64,000 nt of DNA from Escherichia coli (GTDB lineage: Bacteria; Pseudomonadota; Gammaproteobacteria; Enterobacterales; Enterobacteriaceae): the NCBI RefSeq assembly GCF_003334785.1, contig NZ_QOWV01000004.1, one strand, 5' to 3'. Every line of letters begins with the position of its first letter. Position 1 is the stretch's first letter. The position numbers were made by a program, and so were the translations under genes. The notes beneath the pieces were generated by a model, which did no database searches, was not told the DNA's origin, and worked only from the letters and a program-made list of their open reading frames with translations. Positions 4,938 through 12,379 of this stretch are shown one piece after another.

Positions 4938-6368
<1,431 letters not shown>

Positions 6369-6383
6369 GCGAGGTAACAATGA

Positions 6384-6408
6384 ATTCGCCAGACTGTGTC
6401 TGGCGAAT
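6384..6408. repeat. 25-bp palindrome attcgccagac-tgt-gtctggcgaat, 16 bp after gltD stop
   Basis: Perfect 11-bp inverted arms read directly; same family as the copies in and after yhcG. Confidence 0.6.
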
Positions 6409-6927
6409 CAAATTACTGACGAAGTGCGCGTTGTTTTCTGGCAAATGCGGCATGAGCGTTTGACCTTTCCTATAATAGGGATAATTTTCAATAAATTGTG
6501 CTTTGTTCACCAAGTCTGATGAGTGAAGCACATCAAGCAATTTCTCATTTACAATCCGTCTCAATTACTTGTTAACACCTCTGACAATACCGATTCTGCA
6601 AGCTATTCAGTCTTTTCATTCCATGTAAATTGTCTCGATATTAATATACAAAATATGAATATAAAAAACCAATATATTATCCTTAATTATCTATATATTT
6701 TCCTATTTTTCAGCGCAAACATTCATGTAATGAATAATTATCACCACAAACCACCTCACCAGCACCTTATTATTCACATGATCGTAACTATAAAATTCAT
6801 TAAATAAATACATCCCAGCAAGTTGGCTATTTCTGAACGAGTTATTTATTTACATTCACAAACAGATATATATACTGCTTCAGCTTTTTATTTTAAAAAA
6901 TAAATTTGTTATTAAGGATATGTTCAT

Positions 6928-7692
6928 ATGTTTTTCAAAAAGAACCTCACAACAGCTGCTATTTGTGCAGCACTTTCTGTTGCAGCATTCAGTGCCATGG
7001 CAACAGATTCAACTGATACAGAATTAACTATCATCGGCGAGTATACCCCTGGTGCATGTACCCCAGTTGTTACGGGCGGCGGCATTGTTGACTATGGGAA
7101 ACATCATAACAGTGCGCTGAATCCGACCGGTAAAAGTAATAAACTGGTTCAACTGGGCCGCAAAAACAGCACATTAAATATAACCTGCACAGCACCAACG
7201 CTAATTGCTGTAACCTCCAAGGATAACCGTCAGTCGACCATTGTAGCGTTAAACGACACATCCTATATTGAAAAAGCTTATGATACTCTCGTAGATATGA
7301 AGGGAACGAAAAACGCCTTTGGTTTAGGTTCTGCGCCTAATGGACAAAAAATTGGCGCTGCATCCATTGGTATTGACAGGTCTAATGGTGGGATTCACGC
7401 GGCGGACGATACAGGTGAAATTCCTGTCGACCTGATTCAAACTGACCACTGGTCAGCAGCGACCCCCACATGGAAAGCCTCATCTAATGGCGCATTCTGC
7501 TCGCTGACAAGTTGCTCAGCAATCGAGCGCGGTTATTCTGTTGCAAAAACAGGGGAACTGACACCTGTTGCCATTACAGCGGTCACCTTCCCGTTACTGA
7601 TTGATGCTGCGGTAAATGACAATACTATTCTTGGTTCTGATGAAACGATCAAACTGGATGGTAACGTCACTATCAGCGTTCAGTATTTATAA
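6928..7692 (+). CDS. gltF: Periplasmic DUF1120-type fimbrial-like protein, 254 aa, signal peptide
   Basis: ORF 6928..7692; N-terminal signal peptide; paralogous to downstream YhcE/YhcF (shared ACTP..GG.V.YG and C-terminal LDGxxxISVxYL). Confidence 0.85.
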   Translation: MFFKKNLTTAAICAALSVAAFSAMATDSTDTELTIIGEYTPGACTPVVTGGGIVDYGKHHNSALNPTGKSNKLVQLGRKNSTLNITCTAPTLIAVTSKDNRQSTIVALNDTSYIEKAYDTLVDMKGTKNAFGLGSAPNGQKIGAASIGIDRSNGGIHAADDTGEIPVDLIQTDHWSAATPTWKASSNGAFCSLTSCSAIERGYSVAKTGELTPVAITAVTFPLLIDAAVNDNTILGSDETIKLDGNVTISVQYL

Positions 7693-7863
7693 GAACTTGT
7701 AATACAGTTTTTATTTTTACGCATTAACCAGTTAGCTATAACTCGGACAGATTATGCCCTATGACATGGTCTGTCTTAATCAATCTCATCGCAAACAGTG
7801 CATAACATATATTAACAATATGTTTCTGCGTTATTTATCATTATTACAGGAGTTTTAATTTAA

Positions 7864-8538
7864 ATGCTCAGACACATTACATTCACTGTATTTATAACAA
7901 CATCAATGAATACCTTAGCCACAGGGATGGTTCCTGAAACATCAGTATTGCTGGTTGATGAAAAGCGTGGTGAAGCTAGTATTAATATTAAGAATACAGA
8001 TGATCATCCTTCATTGCTTTACACCACCATTGTTGATTTGCCTGAAAGCAATAAATCAATTCGTTTAATCCCGACTCAGCCCGTTATTCGTGTTGAAGCC
8101 GGTCAAGTACAACAGGTTCGATTTTTACTTCAGGCGACTGTTCCTCTGCAATCAGAAGAGCTGAAACGCGTAACGTTCGAAGGTATTCCACCAAAAGATG
8201 ACAAGAGCAGCAGAGTTACTGTTTCAATTCGTCAGGATCTACCTGTACTGATCCACCCGGCTTCCCTGCCGGAAGAGCGAGAGACCTGGAAATTCCTGGA
8301 ATGGCGTAAAAATGGCGACCAAATTGAGATTAGCAACCCCAGTAATTATGTCGTTCGTATGACCTTACAATTTAAAACGCTCCCTTCAGGAAAAACGGGG
8401 GCTATAAATAAGACCTATTTTCTACCACACACCAGTACAACTACTGCATTAACAAACGCTACGGATACAAAAGTCGAGTTTTACCCAGCCAGCCGATATG
8501 GTTATCGCGGTAATAAATATGTCACTGACTTAAAATAA
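7864..8538 (+). CDS. yhcA: Fimbrial periplasmic chaperone (PapD-like), 224 aa
   Basis: ORF 7864..8538; signal peptide; chaperone-like fold recalled for YhcA. Confidence 0.85.
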   Translation: MLRHITFTVFITTSMNTLATGMVPETSVLLVDEKRGEASINIKNTDDHPSLLYTTIVDLPESNKSIRLIPTQPVIRVEAGQVQQVRFLLQATVPLQSEELKRVTFEGIPPKDDKSSRVTVSIRQDLPVLIHPASLPEERETWKFLEWRKNGDQIEISNPSNYVVRMTLQFKTLPSGKTGAINKTYFLPHTSTTTALTNATDTKVEFYPASRYGYRGNKYVTDLK

Positions 8539-8558
8539 CTTTGCCTGGAGCGACAAGG

Positions 8559-10940
8559 ATGTTAAAAAAAACGTTACTGGCCTACACCATTGGTTTTGCC
8601 TTTTCTCCCCCAGCCAATGCAGATGGTATAGAGATTGCCGCTGTTGATTTTGATCGGGAAACATTAAAATCACTAGGTGTAGATCCTAATATATCGCATT
8701 ATTTTTCCCGTTCAGCCCGTTTTTTGCCAGGTGAATATTCACTGATAGTATCAGTAAATGGCGAAAAAAAAGGCAACATTGCTACGCGCTTTGATGAAAA
8801 TGGCGACATTTGTCTTGATCAGGCATTTCTGCAACAAGCCGGTTTAAAAATTCCTTCTGAAGAAAAAAATGGCTGTTACGACTATATATTGTCCTACCCG
8901 GGTACCACAATCACACCATTACCTAACCAGGAAGCGTTAGATATTATCGTTTCACCACAGGCGATCATTCCCATAGGGTTGGATCTCACAAACGCAGCAA
9001 CTGGTGGAACAGCTGCGCTGCTAAACTACTCTCTGATGAGCAGCCGTGCAGAATTTTCTAATGGGAGTTCGGACTACTCCCAGGCTGCACTTGAAGGCGG
9101 GATTAATATTAATGACTGGATGTTACGCAGCCATCAGTTCCTTACACAAACAAATGGCACATTCAGTAACCAGAACTCGTCAACCTACCTTCAACGTACC
9201 TTTACAGATCTTAAAACACTCATGCGAGCAGGTGAAGTTAACCTCAATAATAGCGTGTTGGAAGGAGCCAGTATTTACGGTATCGAAATCGCACCGGACA
9301 ACGCATTGCAAACCAGCGGCAATGGTGTGCAAGTTACTGGTATAGCCAACACCTCTCAGGCTCGTGTCGAGATTCGTCAACAAGGAGTTTTAATTCATTC
9401 CATTCTGGTTCCTGCGGGCGCATTCACTATCCCTGATGTACCTGTTCGCAATGGTAATAGTGATCTTAATGTCACCGTTGTCGAAACAGACGGTAGTTCG
9501 CACAACTATATTGTTCCCTCCACCCTGTTTAATCAGCATGTAGAAAGCTTCCAGGGTTATCGCTTCGCGATAGGGCGGGTAGACGATGACTATGACGAAT
9601 CACCTTGGGTAATTAGTGCATCGAGCGGATGGAATCTGACACGCTGGAGTGCAATGAACGGCGGCGTTATCGTAGCAGAAAATTATCAGGCGGCATCAAT
9701 CCGGTCGAGTCTGGTTCCCCTGCCCGATTTAACAGTGAGCAGCCAAATTAGTACATCGCAGGATACGAAAGACTCACTGCAAGGACAGAAATATCGTCTT
9801 GACGCGAACTACAATCTCCCATTTTCACTTGGGCTAACAACCAGCCTCACTCGATCTGATCGCCATTATCGCGAACTGTCTGAAGCGATTGATGATGATT
9901 ATACCGATCCGACTAAAAGCACTTATGCGCTTGGTTTAAACTGGTCTAACTCCATTCTGGGTGGTTTCAACATCAGTGGCTATAAAACATATAGTTACGA
10001 CGGTGACAATGACTCAAGCAACCTTAATATTAACTGGAACAAAGCGTTCAAACACGCCACGGTTTCCGTCAACTGGCAGCATCAACTTAGTGCTTCAGAA
10101 AATAATGAAGACGATGGTGATCTGTTCTACGTCAACATCAGTATTCCATTTGGCAGATCAAACACCGCCACACTGTATACTCGCCATGACGATCATAAAA
10201 CCCACTATGGTACTGGTGTCATGGGAGTCGTCTCAGATGAGATGTCCTACTATGTGAATGCTGAACGAGATCACGACGAACGTGAAACGAGCTTGAACGG
10301 CAGTATCAGTTCCAATCTCCATTACACCCAAGTCAGCCTTGCCGCAGGAGCAAGCGGCAGTGATAGCCGTACTTACAACGGTACGATGTCAGGTGGTATT
10401 GCCGTACATGATCAGGGAGTGACCTTTTCACCGTGGACTATCAATGACACTTTCGCCATCGCAAAAATGGATAACAATATTGCAGGTGTCAGAATTACAT
10501 CTCAGGCAGGCCCAGTATGGACAGATTTTCGGGGTAATGCCGTCATTCCATCAATCCAGCCGTGGCGAACATCAGGAGTTGAGATCGATACCGCCAGCTT
10601 GCCAAAAAATGTCGATATCGGTAACGGCACAAAAATGATCAAACAAGGCCGTGGTGCAGTAGGGAAAGTCGGATTCAGTGCGATAACACAACGCCGTGCA
10701 TTACTCAATATCACACTTTCCGACGGCAAAAAACTGCCCAGAGGCGTTGCGATTGAAGATAGTGAAGGCAACTATCTGACAACATCAGTGGATGACGGTG
10801 TTGTATTCCTCAATAACATCAAACCGGACATGGTGCTAGATATAAAAGATGAGCAGCAATCATGCCGTATTCACCTTACATTCCCAGAAGATGCACCAAA
10901 AGATGTGTTCTATGAGACAGCAACAGGAGAGTGCCAATGA
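8559..10940 (+). CDS. yhcD: Outer-membrane fimbrial usher, 793 aa
   Basis: ORF 8541..10940 (TTG); ATG at 8559 after AAGGA gives MLKKTLLAYTIGFAF...; usher size; C-terminal Cys pair. Confidence 0.85.
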   Translation: MLKKTLLAYTIGFAFSPPANADGIEIAAVDFDRETLKSLGVDPNISHYFSRSARFLPGEYSLIVSVNGEKKGNIATRFDENGDICLDQAFLQQAGLKIPSEEKNGCYDYILSYPGTTITPLPNQEALDIIVSPQAIIPIGLDLTNAATGGTAALLNYSLMSSRAEFSNGSSDYSQAALEGGININDWMLRSHQFLTQTNGTFSNQNSSTYLQRTFTDLKTLMRAGEVNLNNSVLEGASIYGIEIAPDNALQTSGNGVQVTGIANTSQARVEIRQQGVLIHSILVPAGAFTIPDVPVRNGNSDLNVTVVETDGSSHNYIVPSTLFNQHVESFQGYRFAIGRVDDDYDESPWVISASSGWNLTRWSAMNGGVIVAENYQAASIRSSLVPLPDLTVSSQISTSQDTKDSLQGQKYRLDANYNLPFSLGLTTSLTRSDRHYRELSEAIDDDYTDPTKSTYALGLNWSNSILGGFNISGYKTYSYDGDNDSSNLNINWNKAFKHATVSVNWQHQLSASENNEDDGDLFYVNISIPFGRSNTATLYTRHDDHKTHYGTGVMGVVSDEMSYYVNAERDHDERETSLNGSISSNLHYTQVSLAAGASGSDSRTYNGTMSGGIAVHDQGVTFSPWTINDTFAIAKMDNNIAGVRITSQAGPVWTDFRGNAVIPSIQPWRTSGVEIDTASLPKNVDIGNGTKMIKQGRGAVGKVGFSAITQRRALLNITLSDGKKLPRGVAIEDSEGNYLTTSVDDGVVFLNNIKPDMVLDIKDEQQSCRIHLTFPEDAPKDVFYETATGECQ

Positions 10941-11482
10941 AACGGATAATAACAGGATGCCTGCTGCTGAACTTCGCCATGGCCGCTCAGGCAGAGTGTA
11001 ATATCTCCAGTAGCATACAAAATATCGACTATGGCAAACGAAGTGCTGCCATGCGCCAAGTTGACCGGGGTAAAACAACACAATTAGCAGACAGAACAAT
11101 CACGCTGGTAATGCAATGCGATCAGGACGCTCATATTCGTGTTCAGTTGAATACCGCTAATATTTCCAACAACGGATTTGGATTTGGCCCGAATGGTTCA
11201 TTAAATCTGATCGCCAGCGATGCATTTTCAGGTAGTAACAATCTCGACCTGGCGTTAGCCAGTGGCAAAAATGACAATCCGGGCAGCACAGGAACAGCAT
11301 CAATTAGTACTTCCCCCAATAATTGGCTGGTGTTTATGCAAAATGGTCAAGAAGTGGTAATTGATAGCGGTAAAAGCGTTAGCCTCACACTGACAATGGC
11401 TCCAGCTTTTAAGGATGAAGGGGAACTAACCGACATGACAGATATTACAGGCAATCTGACGGTCCTGGTGGAGGCAAAATGA
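10937..11482 (+). CDS. yhcE: DUF1120-type fimbrial-like protein, uninterrupted, about 181 aa
   Basis: ORF 10931..11482 (GTG); ATG at 10937 overlaps yhcD stop (ATGA); signal peptide; paralog of GltF/YhcF. Confidence 0.7.
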   Translation: MKRIITGCLLLNFAMAAQAECNISSSIQNIDYGKRSAAMRQVDRGKTTQLADRTITLVMQCDQDAHIRVQLNTANISNNGFGFGPNGSLNLIASDAFSGSNNLDLALASGKNDNPGSTGTASISTSPNNWLVFMQNGQEVVIDSGKSVSLTLTMAPAFKDEGELTDMTDITGNLTVLVEAK

Positions 11483-12195
11483 ACAATGTAAAATTACTGA
11501 TTGCCGGAAGTGCCTTTTTTGCCATGTCAGCGCAAGCCGCTGATAGAGTATCAATTGACGTTAAGGTGACTCTGGAAGCTGCAGCTTGTACTCCAATACT
11601 AAGCAACGGCGGAGTTGTTAACTTCGGTAGTCATTCAGTCAATAGACTTTCAACGCAGCACTACACACAGATTGGAACACGTAATATTAATATGACTATA
11701 ACTTGCGAATCCGCTACCGGCATTGCGATTACCGCTCGTGATACACGAATGGATAGTATGACCACCGGAAAAGATAGTGGGGGTCAGAGTGGTGTAAAAT
11801 ATACCTTAAATGGCGGAGGTTATATTAGCCAGACAACGCGCTTATTCGGCTTAGGGAAAACAAAAGATAATAAAAATATCGGTAGTTATGCCGTGTTAAT
11901 TGATAGCAACAACATTAGTGCCAGCAATGGTAGCCAGACGTTAGCTGTATCAATAGCAGGTGCAGATGCCGTCATAACAGGGCAAAAAAGAGCATGGCAA
12001 ACGCTCACCGCTTATCCGCTTGCAGTCGATCAAAGCTATTATTACACCTTTGTAAAACCAGGTGAAACAACCCCAACTCCTGTAACGAACGCCATTATAC
12101 CGCTTCAGGTGAGCGCATCTATCGCGAATGATTTAGGCGGTTCAGAAAAAATCGAACTTGATGGGAAAGCTGTGATAAGCGTAGTCTACTTGTGA
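11479..12195 (+). CDS. yhcF: DUF1120-type fimbrial-like protein, 238 aa
   Basis: ORF 11479..12195; ATGA overlap with yhcE stop; signal peptide; C-terminus LDGKAVISVVYL resembles GltF. Confidence 0.8.
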   Translation: MNNVKLLIAGSAFFAMSAQAADRVSIDVKVTLEAAACTPILSNGGVVNFGSHSVNRLSTQHYTQIGTRNINMTITCESATGIAITARDTRMDSMTTGKDSGGQSGVKYTLNGGGYISQTTRLFGLGKTKDNKNIGSYAVLIDSNNISASNGSQTLAVSIAGADAVITGQKRAWQTLTAYPLAVDQSYYYTFVKPGETTPTPVTNAIIPLQVSASIANDLGGSEKIELDGKAVISVVYL

Positions 12196-12379
12196 TAACA
12201 ATGCCGGACAGGAGTACTATCAGGCATTCGTTTTATACGATCGGTTAATGTTTCAGGAAAGCTCTTCGCATATCTTGGGGAAAGTAAATGTAATACGCTG
12301 TTCTTAATTGTTCAGTGCTCACCCCCCAGAGTATAGCTCATTCCATTATTCAACTTAGCTCCATATAAAGGGACAGATA

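Follow-up and report, generated by a model that had tools for sequence, protein, structure and literature searches.

The Yhc chaperone-usher fimbrial operon of E. coli, gltF-yhcA-yhcD-yhcE-yhcF, lies within the stretch of DNA analysed here (64,000 nucleotides, hereafter the window), where it takes its ordinary wild form, free of the IS5 element of K-12 (Table 1). All five genes are full-length, and the annotated regions for them in many E. coli genomes are 100% identical to the window. The genotype, its beta class, the IS5 in K-12 and intact natural alleles are already published (Del Canto 2017, Krol 2019, Wurpel 2013). The gltF-yhcADEF genes are one of 12 chaperone-usher operons in MG1655 (PMC8174762), and usher trees place YhcD in the beta clade (PMC3559732, PMC5216030). 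Consistent with this placement, YhcD passes the NCBIfam subfamily model PRK15304, as does the usher of L005, a further DUF1120 cluster.

Table 1. Features of the Yhc locus, in window coordinates
Feature	Position	Strand	Description
Accessory island	6371-12250	+	Carries the whole Yhc cluster; 5.9 kb, low GC, between gltD and yhcG
Non-coding leader	6371-6927	+	AT-rich, 5' of gltF; presumed regulatory; GC 0.31 at 6500-6999
gltF	6928-7692	+	254 aa; encoded first; secreted pilin-like DUF1120 subunit, candidate major subunit
yhcA	7864-8538	+	224 aa; PapD-like periplasmic chaperone
yhcD	8559-10940	+	793 aa from the RefSeq ATG; outer-membrane usher
yhcE	10937-11482	+	181 aa from ATG, uninterrupted; predicted pilin-fold protein without N-terminal extension
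TTAG target site of the K-12 IS5	11304-11307	+	Empty here; window continuous across the site
yhcF	11479-12195	+	238 aa; secreted DUF1120 pilin-like subunit

The ATGA overlaps proposed for the yhcD/yhcE and yhcE/yhcF junctions are both present in the sequence, at 10937-10940 (...GAGTGCCAATGAAACGG) and 11479-11482 (...GCAAAATGAACAAT), where each stop codon runs into the next ATG, and Shine-Dalgarno-like AGGAG and GGAGG stand 5' of the two overlaps. Translational coupling at these 4-nt overlaps, as suggested by the initial annotation, would fit the recurrence of the same overlaps in distant relatives. In the yhcD frame, a TTG at 8541, upstream of the RefSeq ATG, is also open.

We further compared the locus with genomes lacking it. 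In an island-less O111:H8 genome, homology ends at 6370 and restarts at 12251, with 53 bp in the island's place, and yhcG directly adjoins gltD in island-less E. coli genomes. The island has a GC content of 0.31-0.49, compared with 0.55-0.60 in the flanks, and is carried by 1114 of 5426 complete E. coli genomes; a search for plasmid copies found none. Within the leader, a 26-nt palindrome (6383-6408) follows immediately 3' of the gltD stop, and a candidate sigma-70-like site (TTTACA-16-TATACT, 10/12 match) lies at 6849-6876. When 6300-12450 was scanned for promoters and terminators, the counts did not exceed those of shuffled controls; that site and another at 7812-7841 are candidates only. 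An Rfam search of 6300-13700 at a permissive threshold returned no match. A 72-aa minus-strand ORF (6346-6564) that reads IRQTQSGEF like YhcG was considered as a possible relic of an inverted second gene of the yhcG (DUF1016) type, a reading that was rejected, given that it has no Pfam DUF1016 match and that the likeness is limited to the 26-nt palindrome.

Base-by-base comparison with K-12 RP437 revealed a 1195-bp IS5 within its yhcE at the site listed in Table 1, with TTAG duplicated on both sides, and the K-12 annotation gives yhcE as two pseudogene pieces around the IS5 transposase. Outside the element, K-12 and the window differ by three SNPs in all over the other 6.2 kb. One of these falls inside yhcD (9322), in line with which the usher protein accession differs from that of K-12, while GltF, YhcA and YhcF are the same proteins in both. 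The junction alignment thus confirmed the earlier claim that K-12 yhcE is disrupted by an IS5 absent here. The claim of a continuous 181-codon yhcE was likewise confirmed: the protein aligns over its full length with orthologues of E. albertii and E. ruysiae, among others, each of 181 aa, with no truncation or frameshift. The accompanying description of a normally cryptic system, however, was K-12-centred, since an uninterrupted yhcE is the normal state, found in 783 of 1142 complete E. coli genomes that have the gene. The K-12 IS5 junction sequence occurs in its exact form in 341 of the same 1142, and the split-allele genomes, among those listed, are for the most part K-12 laboratory derivatives. 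The intact allele is the common natural state. Across E. coli, yhcE copies share at least 99% identity, and a second, independent insertion in the cluster, of IS1, was seen in strain 1283. Intact loci in phylogroup A ETEC, as well as the insertion in K-12, were previously reported (PMC5216030); E. coli C has no IS5 at yhc (PMC6805351), BW25113 carries it in yhcE (PMC11677980), and a laboratory evolution study recorded IS5 in the gltF-yhcA spacer (PMC8403718).

The assembly proteins bear out the view of the locus as a chaperone-usher cluster. YhcD contains PapC_N (31-159), Usher (176-706, E = 3e-150) and PapC_C (715-777) domains and matches PRK15304 over its full length (1271.6 bits, cutoff 723). 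YhcA matches the fimbrial chaperone model PRK09918 (319.7 bits, cutoff 183), its significant PDB sequence relatives are Caf1M, DraB, CupB2, PapD and SfaE, and the identical cluster, like its homologues, carries a PF00345 record. Classical chaperones anchor the subunit C-terminus through Arg8 and Lys112 (PapD/FimC numbering). This canonical pair is absent in YhcA, which has Val28 at the Arg8/Arg20 position and Pro127 at the Lys112/Lys139 position. The phmmer alignment with Caf1M set Pro127 opposite Lys139 with high posterior probability (IKLLVRP versus LPVLIHP), and a MAFFT alignment with FimC set it opposite Lys112 and Val28 opposite Arg8, although at 17% identity the Arg8 register is less certain than that of Lys112. 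Across 16 YhcA-family sequences, Pro127 is nearly invariant and the Arg8 equivalent is Val, Ile or Leu in every one. R76, R86, R102 and R123 of YhcA are conserved. Given the missing pair, subunit capture by YhcA may differ from the textbook mechanism.

Among the putative subunits, GltF and YhcF both match DUF1120 (PF06551) significantly (E = 1.8e-45 and 2.3e-47, respectively) and, with 30% identity to each other (E = 6e-26), are clear paralogues. The initial annotation had counted YhcE as a third paralogue and all subunits as DUF1120-type, which held for GltF and YhcF but not in full for YhcE: its pairwise comparisons with the other two are weak (E = 0.017 and 0.22), and it relates to DUF1120 only remotely, below the Pfam threshold (E = 0.11, residues 30-70 only). 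The proposed C-terminal motif LDGxxxISVxYL is exact in GltF and YhcF. The N-terminal motif is also shared, but its form is ACTP-x4-GG-x-V-x-[YF]-G rather than ACTP..GG.V.YG. In GltF, the signal peptide is followed by the segment TDSTDTELTIIGEYTPGAC and then the conserved Cys44, and the C-terminus is LDGNVTISVQYL; the N-terminal peptide of YhcF is ADRVSIDVKVTLEA. Both segments contain the alternating-hydrophobic pattern of a putative donor strand (ELTIIGEY in GltF, VSIDVKVTLE in YhcF). The Cys-Cys spacing is 43 residues in GltF, 39 in YhcF and 40 in YhcE. Searches of PDB sequences with YhcF and with the YhcE-family profile found no meaningful relative, and we therefore turned to fold prediction. 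The predicted structure of YhcF (pLDDT 84) has FimA and the FimH pilin domain as its top matches, and GltF probably shares this fold, judging from its identity to YhcF. GltF, YhcF and YhcE also gave sub-threshold matches to PRK15301-15303, which we take to be Salmonella-derived models, probably built on stj genes; stj is another beta-class cluster.

Only 2 of 79 YhcE relatives reached E <= 0.001 against Pfam DUF1120, and 26 reached E <= 0.1. Alignment of the YhcE family to DUF1120 with hhalign gave a probability of 96.6% (E = 5e-10) over the N-terminal 60 columns, spanning the Cys...DYG...Cys core, and YhcE has AFDB neighbours with a DUF1120 annotation. Its AlphaFold model is confident, with chaperone-usher pilin domains as the top structural matches. 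Profile-profile comparison and the model together show YhcE as a predicted pilin fold and a distant relative of DUF1120. Its predicted mature N-terminus begins one residue before the first conserved Cys, as in most of 78 relatives. A stretch of 15 or more residues separates the signal-peptide core from the first conserved Cys in only 4 of 78 YhcE-type proteins (median 5.5 residues), compared with 28 of 29 YhcF/GltF-type proteins. The C-terminus, LTVLVEAK, lacks the penultimate Tyr present in GltF and YhcF. The orthologues are all exactly 181 aa; even at 48-59% identity, as in E. albertii, E. ruysiae and others, the alignment runs over the whole protein, and 50 positions are invariant.

Gene order adds to this pattern. 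A YhcE-type gene stands directly 3' of the usher in five diverse clusters. The YhcE-like gene follows the usher with a 4-nt overlap, as in the window, and with DUF1120 genes nearby, in L004, L005-L007, L011 and L012. In L009, it encodes a two-domain version of 375 aa, unlike the single-domain protein of the window, and starts 5 nt after the usher stop. L005, L009, L011 and L012 further resemble the window in having several DUF1120 subunits, a PapD_N chaperone and a PRK15304-subfamily usher, at sequence identities to the E. coli proteins of ~20-50% in the clusters sampled. The clusters differ in how many DUF1120 genes they have and where these lie, from three in L005, all upstream of the chaperone, to four or five in L011, all downstream. 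The tip subunits FimH and PapG have a pilin fold with no donor strand. The missing strand and the place directly after the usher thus fit YhcE as a distal tip or initiator subunit, a role suggested by sequence pattern, predicted fold and gene order.

Taken as a whole, the locus is best explained, with a probability of roughly 85%, as an intact wild-type Yhc operon, the only beta-class one of the species, that would assemble a fibre as follows. GltF, YhcE and YhcF would be exported by Sec and held in the periplasm by the PapD-like YhcA, and donor-strand exchange would polymerise them as they pass through the usher YhcD. GltF and YhcF, each with a putative donor strand, would form the fibre, its major subunit probably being GltF, encoded by the first gene. 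YhcE, able to accept a strand and not to donate one, would be the first subunit through the usher and would sit at the distal tip. The IS5 of K-12 would then deprive the system of its initiating or tip subunit and would probably lower expression of the translationally coupled downstream yhcF as well. Like other cryptic fimbrial operons of E. coli, this one lies in AT-rich DNA, and it probably stays silent under laboratory conditions. For any beta-class system, a fibre, surface protein or adhesion has never been shown (PMC5216030, PMC3373541), and in the one published test, deletion of yhc in ETEC left Caco-2 adherence unchanged (PMC5216030). More tentatively, and with somewhat less than even odds, we propose that beta-class systems have a dedicated tip or initiator after all, contrary to the view in reviews. 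This would be the YhcE family, a strand-less, usher-coupled pilin-fold protein sometimes duplicated to two domains. On the same proposal, Val and Pro in place of Arg8 and Lys112 would mark a variant mode of subunit capture, and the K-12 IS5 would have hit exactly the initiating subunit.

It is unlikely, though worth weighing, that YhcE is instead an accessory periplasmic or outer-membrane factor, such as an assembly regulator or anchor, which shares the Ig-like fold, leaving GltF and YhcF alone to form a tip-less thin fibre or an afimbrial layer. Beta clusters are described in reviews, as relayed by the articles consulted (PMC5216030, PMC3373541), as having no typical adhesin gene, and YhcE stays below the DUF1120 threshold and has a C-terminal strand without the Tyr-containing motif of its neighbours. 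However, the structures it matches best are specifically pilin domains of chaperone-usher systems, its profile similarity to DUF1120 spans the cysteine core, and its Cys-Cys spacing is close to those of GltF and YhcF. Moreover, its place after the usher and the two-domain variant resemble tip adhesin genes, and a strand-less pilin fold is the look of FimH and PapG.

Two further readings concern the locus as a whole. The cluster could be an evolutionary remnant, a silent island that is being lost and makes nothing useful, its intactness owed only to a recent ancestor shared with other phylogroup A strains. Such a reading would account for the absence of the island from ~79% of complete E. coli genomes, the near-identity of yhcE copies (leaving little time for decay), the separate IS hits in K-12, in strain 1283 and in the gltF-yhcA spacer (PMC8403718), and the lack of an adherence phenotype in the deletion (PMC5216030). 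We nevertheless consider it improbable, because the constant length of YhcE orthologues at 48-59% identity, the conservation of chaperone, usher and DUF1120 partners in Enterobacter, Klebsiella, Leclercia and other genera, and the usher/YhcE-like overlap retained in distant clusters indicate purifying selection on the whole system. The historical annotation, by contrast, treats gltF as the third gene of a gltBDF glutamate synthase operon, encoding a nitrogen-metabolism regulator that has nothing to do with the yhc genes. It draws on the position of gltF 3' of gltD on the same strand and on a name and operon assignment that persist in the literature (PMC8403718). GltF, however, is a paralogue of YhcF, with a signal peptide and a DUF1120 domain; 559 bp of AT-rich spacer, opening with a hairpin, separate it from gltD; and in related clusters DUF1120 genes neighbour a chaperone and usher, while glt genes are absent from the vicinity. 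The distribution of the island, missing from ~79% of E. coli genomes that all keep gltBD, already effectively refutes this assignment.

The intact Yhc operon thus occupies the same locus, in the same gene order, as in K-12 and phylogroup A, with the difference that in K-12 the 1195-bp IS5 splits yhcE. With the classical type 1 (Fim) and P (Pap) pili, the system shares the three usher Pfam domains, a PapD-like chaperone, subunits with a predicted fold like FimA, the FimH pilin domain and PapE, and, near the N-terminus of GltF and YhcF, a segment resembling a donor strand; its strand-less YhcE can be likened to the pilin domains of the tip adhesins FimH and PapG. It differs in that its subunits belong to DUF1120 and not to Pfam Fimbrial (PF00419), YhcE consists of one domain and so has no separate lectin domain, and the canonical Arg8/Lys112 pair is missing from the chaperone.

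The additions of the present analysis are small, namely a YhcE without donor strand, its post-usher position in five clusters and a YhcA family without Arg8/Lys112; we put forward as hypotheses that YhcE is a strand-less pilin whose gene follows that of the usher and that the chaperone does without the canonical pair. Among the classes of chaperone-usher fimbriae in E. coli, that of Yhc is the only one still uncharacterised, and the practical value of these findings lies in the reminder that K-12 is the exception, so that an intact strain like the present one, or E. coli C, would be a better start than K-12.

We put the probability at about 0.85 that the locus at 6928-12195, which is occupied by five ORFs on one strand, is an intact, probably silent beta-class chaperone-usher operon. 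A megablast search (query 6500-12700) of 5426 complete E. coli genomes returned 100% identical regions annotated gltF/yhcA/yhcD/'YhcE family protein'/yhcF, which identifies the window as E. coli chromosomal DNA and bears out the gene names of the initial annotation. Both overlaps that it had described were found, each an ATGA common to the stop codon of one gene and the start codon of the next (yhcD/yhcE and yhcE/yhcF), with AGGAG and GGAGG close 5' of the two. YhcD contains the Pfam domains PapC_N, Usher (E = 3e-150) and PapC_C and matches NCBIfam PRK15304, an usher subfamily model, above its cutoff along the whole protein, and YhcA passes the NCBIfam fimbrial chaperone model PRK09918.

Coordinates of the Yhc genes and of neighbouring features
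Feature	Position	Strand	Remark
Island	6371-12250		53 bp here in the island-less strain
Spacer ORF	6346-6564	-	72 aa
Palindrome 1	6383-6411		15 nt past gltD stop, within island left edge
Spacer ORF	6523-6807	+	94 aa
gltF	6928-7692	same as other four	254 aa
gltF-yhcA spacer	7693-7863
yhcA	7864-8538	same	224 aa
yhcD	8559-10940	same	793 aa from RefSeq ATG; TTG at 8541 also open
yhcD/yhcE overlap	10937-10940		ATGA
yhcE	10937-11482	same	181 aa counted from ATG
K-12 IS5 site	11304-11307		target TTAG
yhcE/yhcF overlap	11479-11482		ATGA
yhcF	11479-12195	same	238 aa
Palindromes 2-4	12682-12710, 12721-12749, 12760-12788		tandem, 39-nt period, in frame within yhcG
Palindrome 5	13522-13550		15 nt past yhcG stop

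The disruption of K-12 yhcE by IS5, stated in the initial annotation, was confirmed in strain RP437, where yhcE is annotated as two pseudogene fragments flanking an IS5 transposase. Base-by-base comparison revealed a 1195-bp insertion with duplication of its 4-bp target and only 3 SNPs in the remaining 6.2 kb. In the window YhcE is neither truncated nor frameshifted, aligning end to end, at 48-84% identity, with 181-aa orthologues of other Escherichia lineages. With yhcE alone as the query, the gene was present in 1142 of the 5426 genomes and formed a single uninterrupted piece in 783, a count that includes at least one IS1 insertion whose two sides the search tool had joined. A complete match to an 80-nt probe spanning the junction of yhcE and IS5 in K-12 was obtained in 341 genomes, and the split-allele records listed are mostly K-12 laboratory derivatives (e.g., J53, BW2952, HB101, ER2796, and Origami). 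The intact allele is thus not unusual. Independently of the K-12 IS5, an IS1 lies in yhcE of the canine strain 1283 (H31), and a laboratory evolution study describes a further IS5 newly inserted between gltF and yhcA (PMC8403718); insertion sequences seem to be attracted to the island.

The observation of an intact Yhc genotype is correct, but the genotype is common and already published. Del Canto et al. (2017, PMC5216030), the source of the explicit beta-class label, reported 13 phylogroup A ETEC genomes with complete yhc loci lacking the IS, hundreds of database matches to intact YhcE, and Caco-2 adherence unaltered by yhc deletion. The yhcE IS5 is absent from E. coli C (Krol et al. 2019, PMC6805351), the yhcE copy of IS5 has been catalogued in BW25113 (PMC11677980), and gltF-yhcADEF is one of 12 chaperone-usher operons of MG1655 (PMC8174762). 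Wurpel et al. (2013, PMC3559732) included the usher of Yhc in a six-clade tree of ushers and counted Yhc among sporadic, under-represented fimbriae. Only two points described below, both hypotheses, are mildly new: how YhcE is interpreted structurally and the substitution in the chaperone.

The genes form an accessory island: yhcG comes straight after gltD in an O111:H8 genome, GC content is 0.31-0.49 within the island versus 0.55-0.60 outside, and the whole island occurs in ~1114 of the 5426 genomes (21%), with no plasmid-borne copy found among its carriers. Historically, gltF was assigned to the glutamate synthase operon, as its third gene, and viewed as a glutamate synthase regulator. This view is effectively excluded because an AT-rich spacer puts 559 bp between gltD and gltF, the gltF product is a secreted DUF1120 protein, and the gene is missing from ~79% of E. 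coli genomes, all of which keep gltBD. Two ORFs in the spacer are probably not genes, and a Pfam search with the 72-aa product gave no meaningful match.

A 26-29 nt palindrome, AATTC(G/C)NCAGAC-NNN-GTCTGN(G/C)GAATT, is present in five copies, all at the locus edges. None matched Rfam; a looser core had 6 matches versus 2.7 expected in the 64-kb window, five of them the edge copies. The tandem copies encode IRQTMSGEL, IPQTPSAEF, and IWQTLSAKS within YhcG, a predicted PDDEXK nuclease. Between strains yhcG differs in length by ~80 bp, roughly two 39-nt units (window 12714-12761 versus 6432-6463 of the O111:H8 locus), and in O111:H8 the gene is the shorter one and carries a frameshift annotation. 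The tandem palindromes seem to mark a site of variable length through which yhcG can be inactivated.

The initial annotation assigned all subunits to DUF1120, which holds for GltF and YhcF (Pfam E about 1e-45; 30% mutual identity) but not directly for YhcE (Pfam E = 0.11). Of the motifs it gave for GltF and YhcF, the C-terminal LDGxxxISVxYL stood, while the N-terminal spacing was two residues short, the actual pattern being ACTP-x4-GG-x-V-x-[YF]-G. By BLASTP, YhcE matched YhcF at E = 0.017 and GltF at E = 0.22, and sequence searches of the PDB with YhcF and a YhcE-family profile detected no solved structure. When 1.84 billion representative proteins were searched with a profile of Escherichia YhcE sequences, 119 relatives emerged. 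An alignment of these (79 sequences) matched a DUF1120 alignment over the Cys...DYG...Cys core in hhalign (96.6% probability, E = 5e-10), with weak individual DUF1120 matches in 26 of the 79. Neighbours in AFDB of the confidently predicted YhcE model (pLDDT 92.2, pTM 0.85) carry the annotations 'Fimbrial protein' or 'DUF1120 domain-containing protein'. YhcE is thus of pilin type and remotely related to GltF and YhcF.

Between signal peptide and first conserved Cys, YhcF and GltF relatives share a conserved ~15-residue segment with alternating hydrophobic positions (ADRVSIDVKVTLEAAAC in YhcF, TELTIIGEYTPGAC in GltF), a putative donor strand by its pattern. YhcE relatives have a Cys almost immediately after the signal-peptide cleavage region. 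The distance from signal-peptide core to this Cys is at least 15 residues in 28/29 DUF1120 sequences of YhcF/GltF type (median 17) and in 4/78 of YhcE type (median 5.5). In donor-strand exchange, a subunit of pilin fold that has no donor strand can accept a strand and cannot donate one, and so belongs at the distal tip, first through the usher; YhcE would thus take this place. Gene order agrees: a YhcE-like gene lies directly 3' of the usher gene, with DUF1120 genes near, in all five sampled contexts with an identifiable upstream gene. Among the sampled distant clusters, this junction is a 4-nt overlap in L005-L007, L011, and L012 and a 5-nt gap in L009; in L004 the 4-nt overlap is with an unannotated upstream gene. 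Some YhcE relatives are ~375-395 aa long, with two domains and two matches to the YhcE profile. The 375-aa form in L009 (8001-9128), whose gene immediately follows that of the usher among DUF1120 and chaperone genes, resembles tip adhesins, which are often two-domain. Against such a role, YhcE lacks the C-terminal Tyr motif present in GltF and YhcF.

YhcA and YhcD would assemble a thin fibre from GltF and/or YhcF, which YhcE might start or cap, a role we hold tentatively, at slightly under even odds; a rival reading makes YhcE an accessory protein outside the fibre. Another regards the whole locus as a decaying remnant without function, against which stands the conservation of all Yhc parts across genera.

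By sequence, YhcA clearly belongs to the PapD-like family, with Caf1M, DraB, CupB2, PapD, and SfaE as its relatives among solved structures, despite departing from one textbook feature. Classical chaperones anchor the subunit C-terminus through Arg8 and Lys112, and this pair is absent from the 16 aligned YhcA-family sequences. Pro127 of YhcA aligns with the invariant Lys (phmmer against Caf1M; MAFFT with FimC), LPVLIHP replacing IKLLVRP or IKLYYRP, and Val28 occupies the Arg8/Arg20 position by equal spacing from the conserved 'KN/TN' motif. Within the family Pro127 is nearly invariant, and Val, Ile, or Leu fills position 28 in 16/16. These alignments suggest that chaperones of beta-class systems may hold their subunits in a variant mode.
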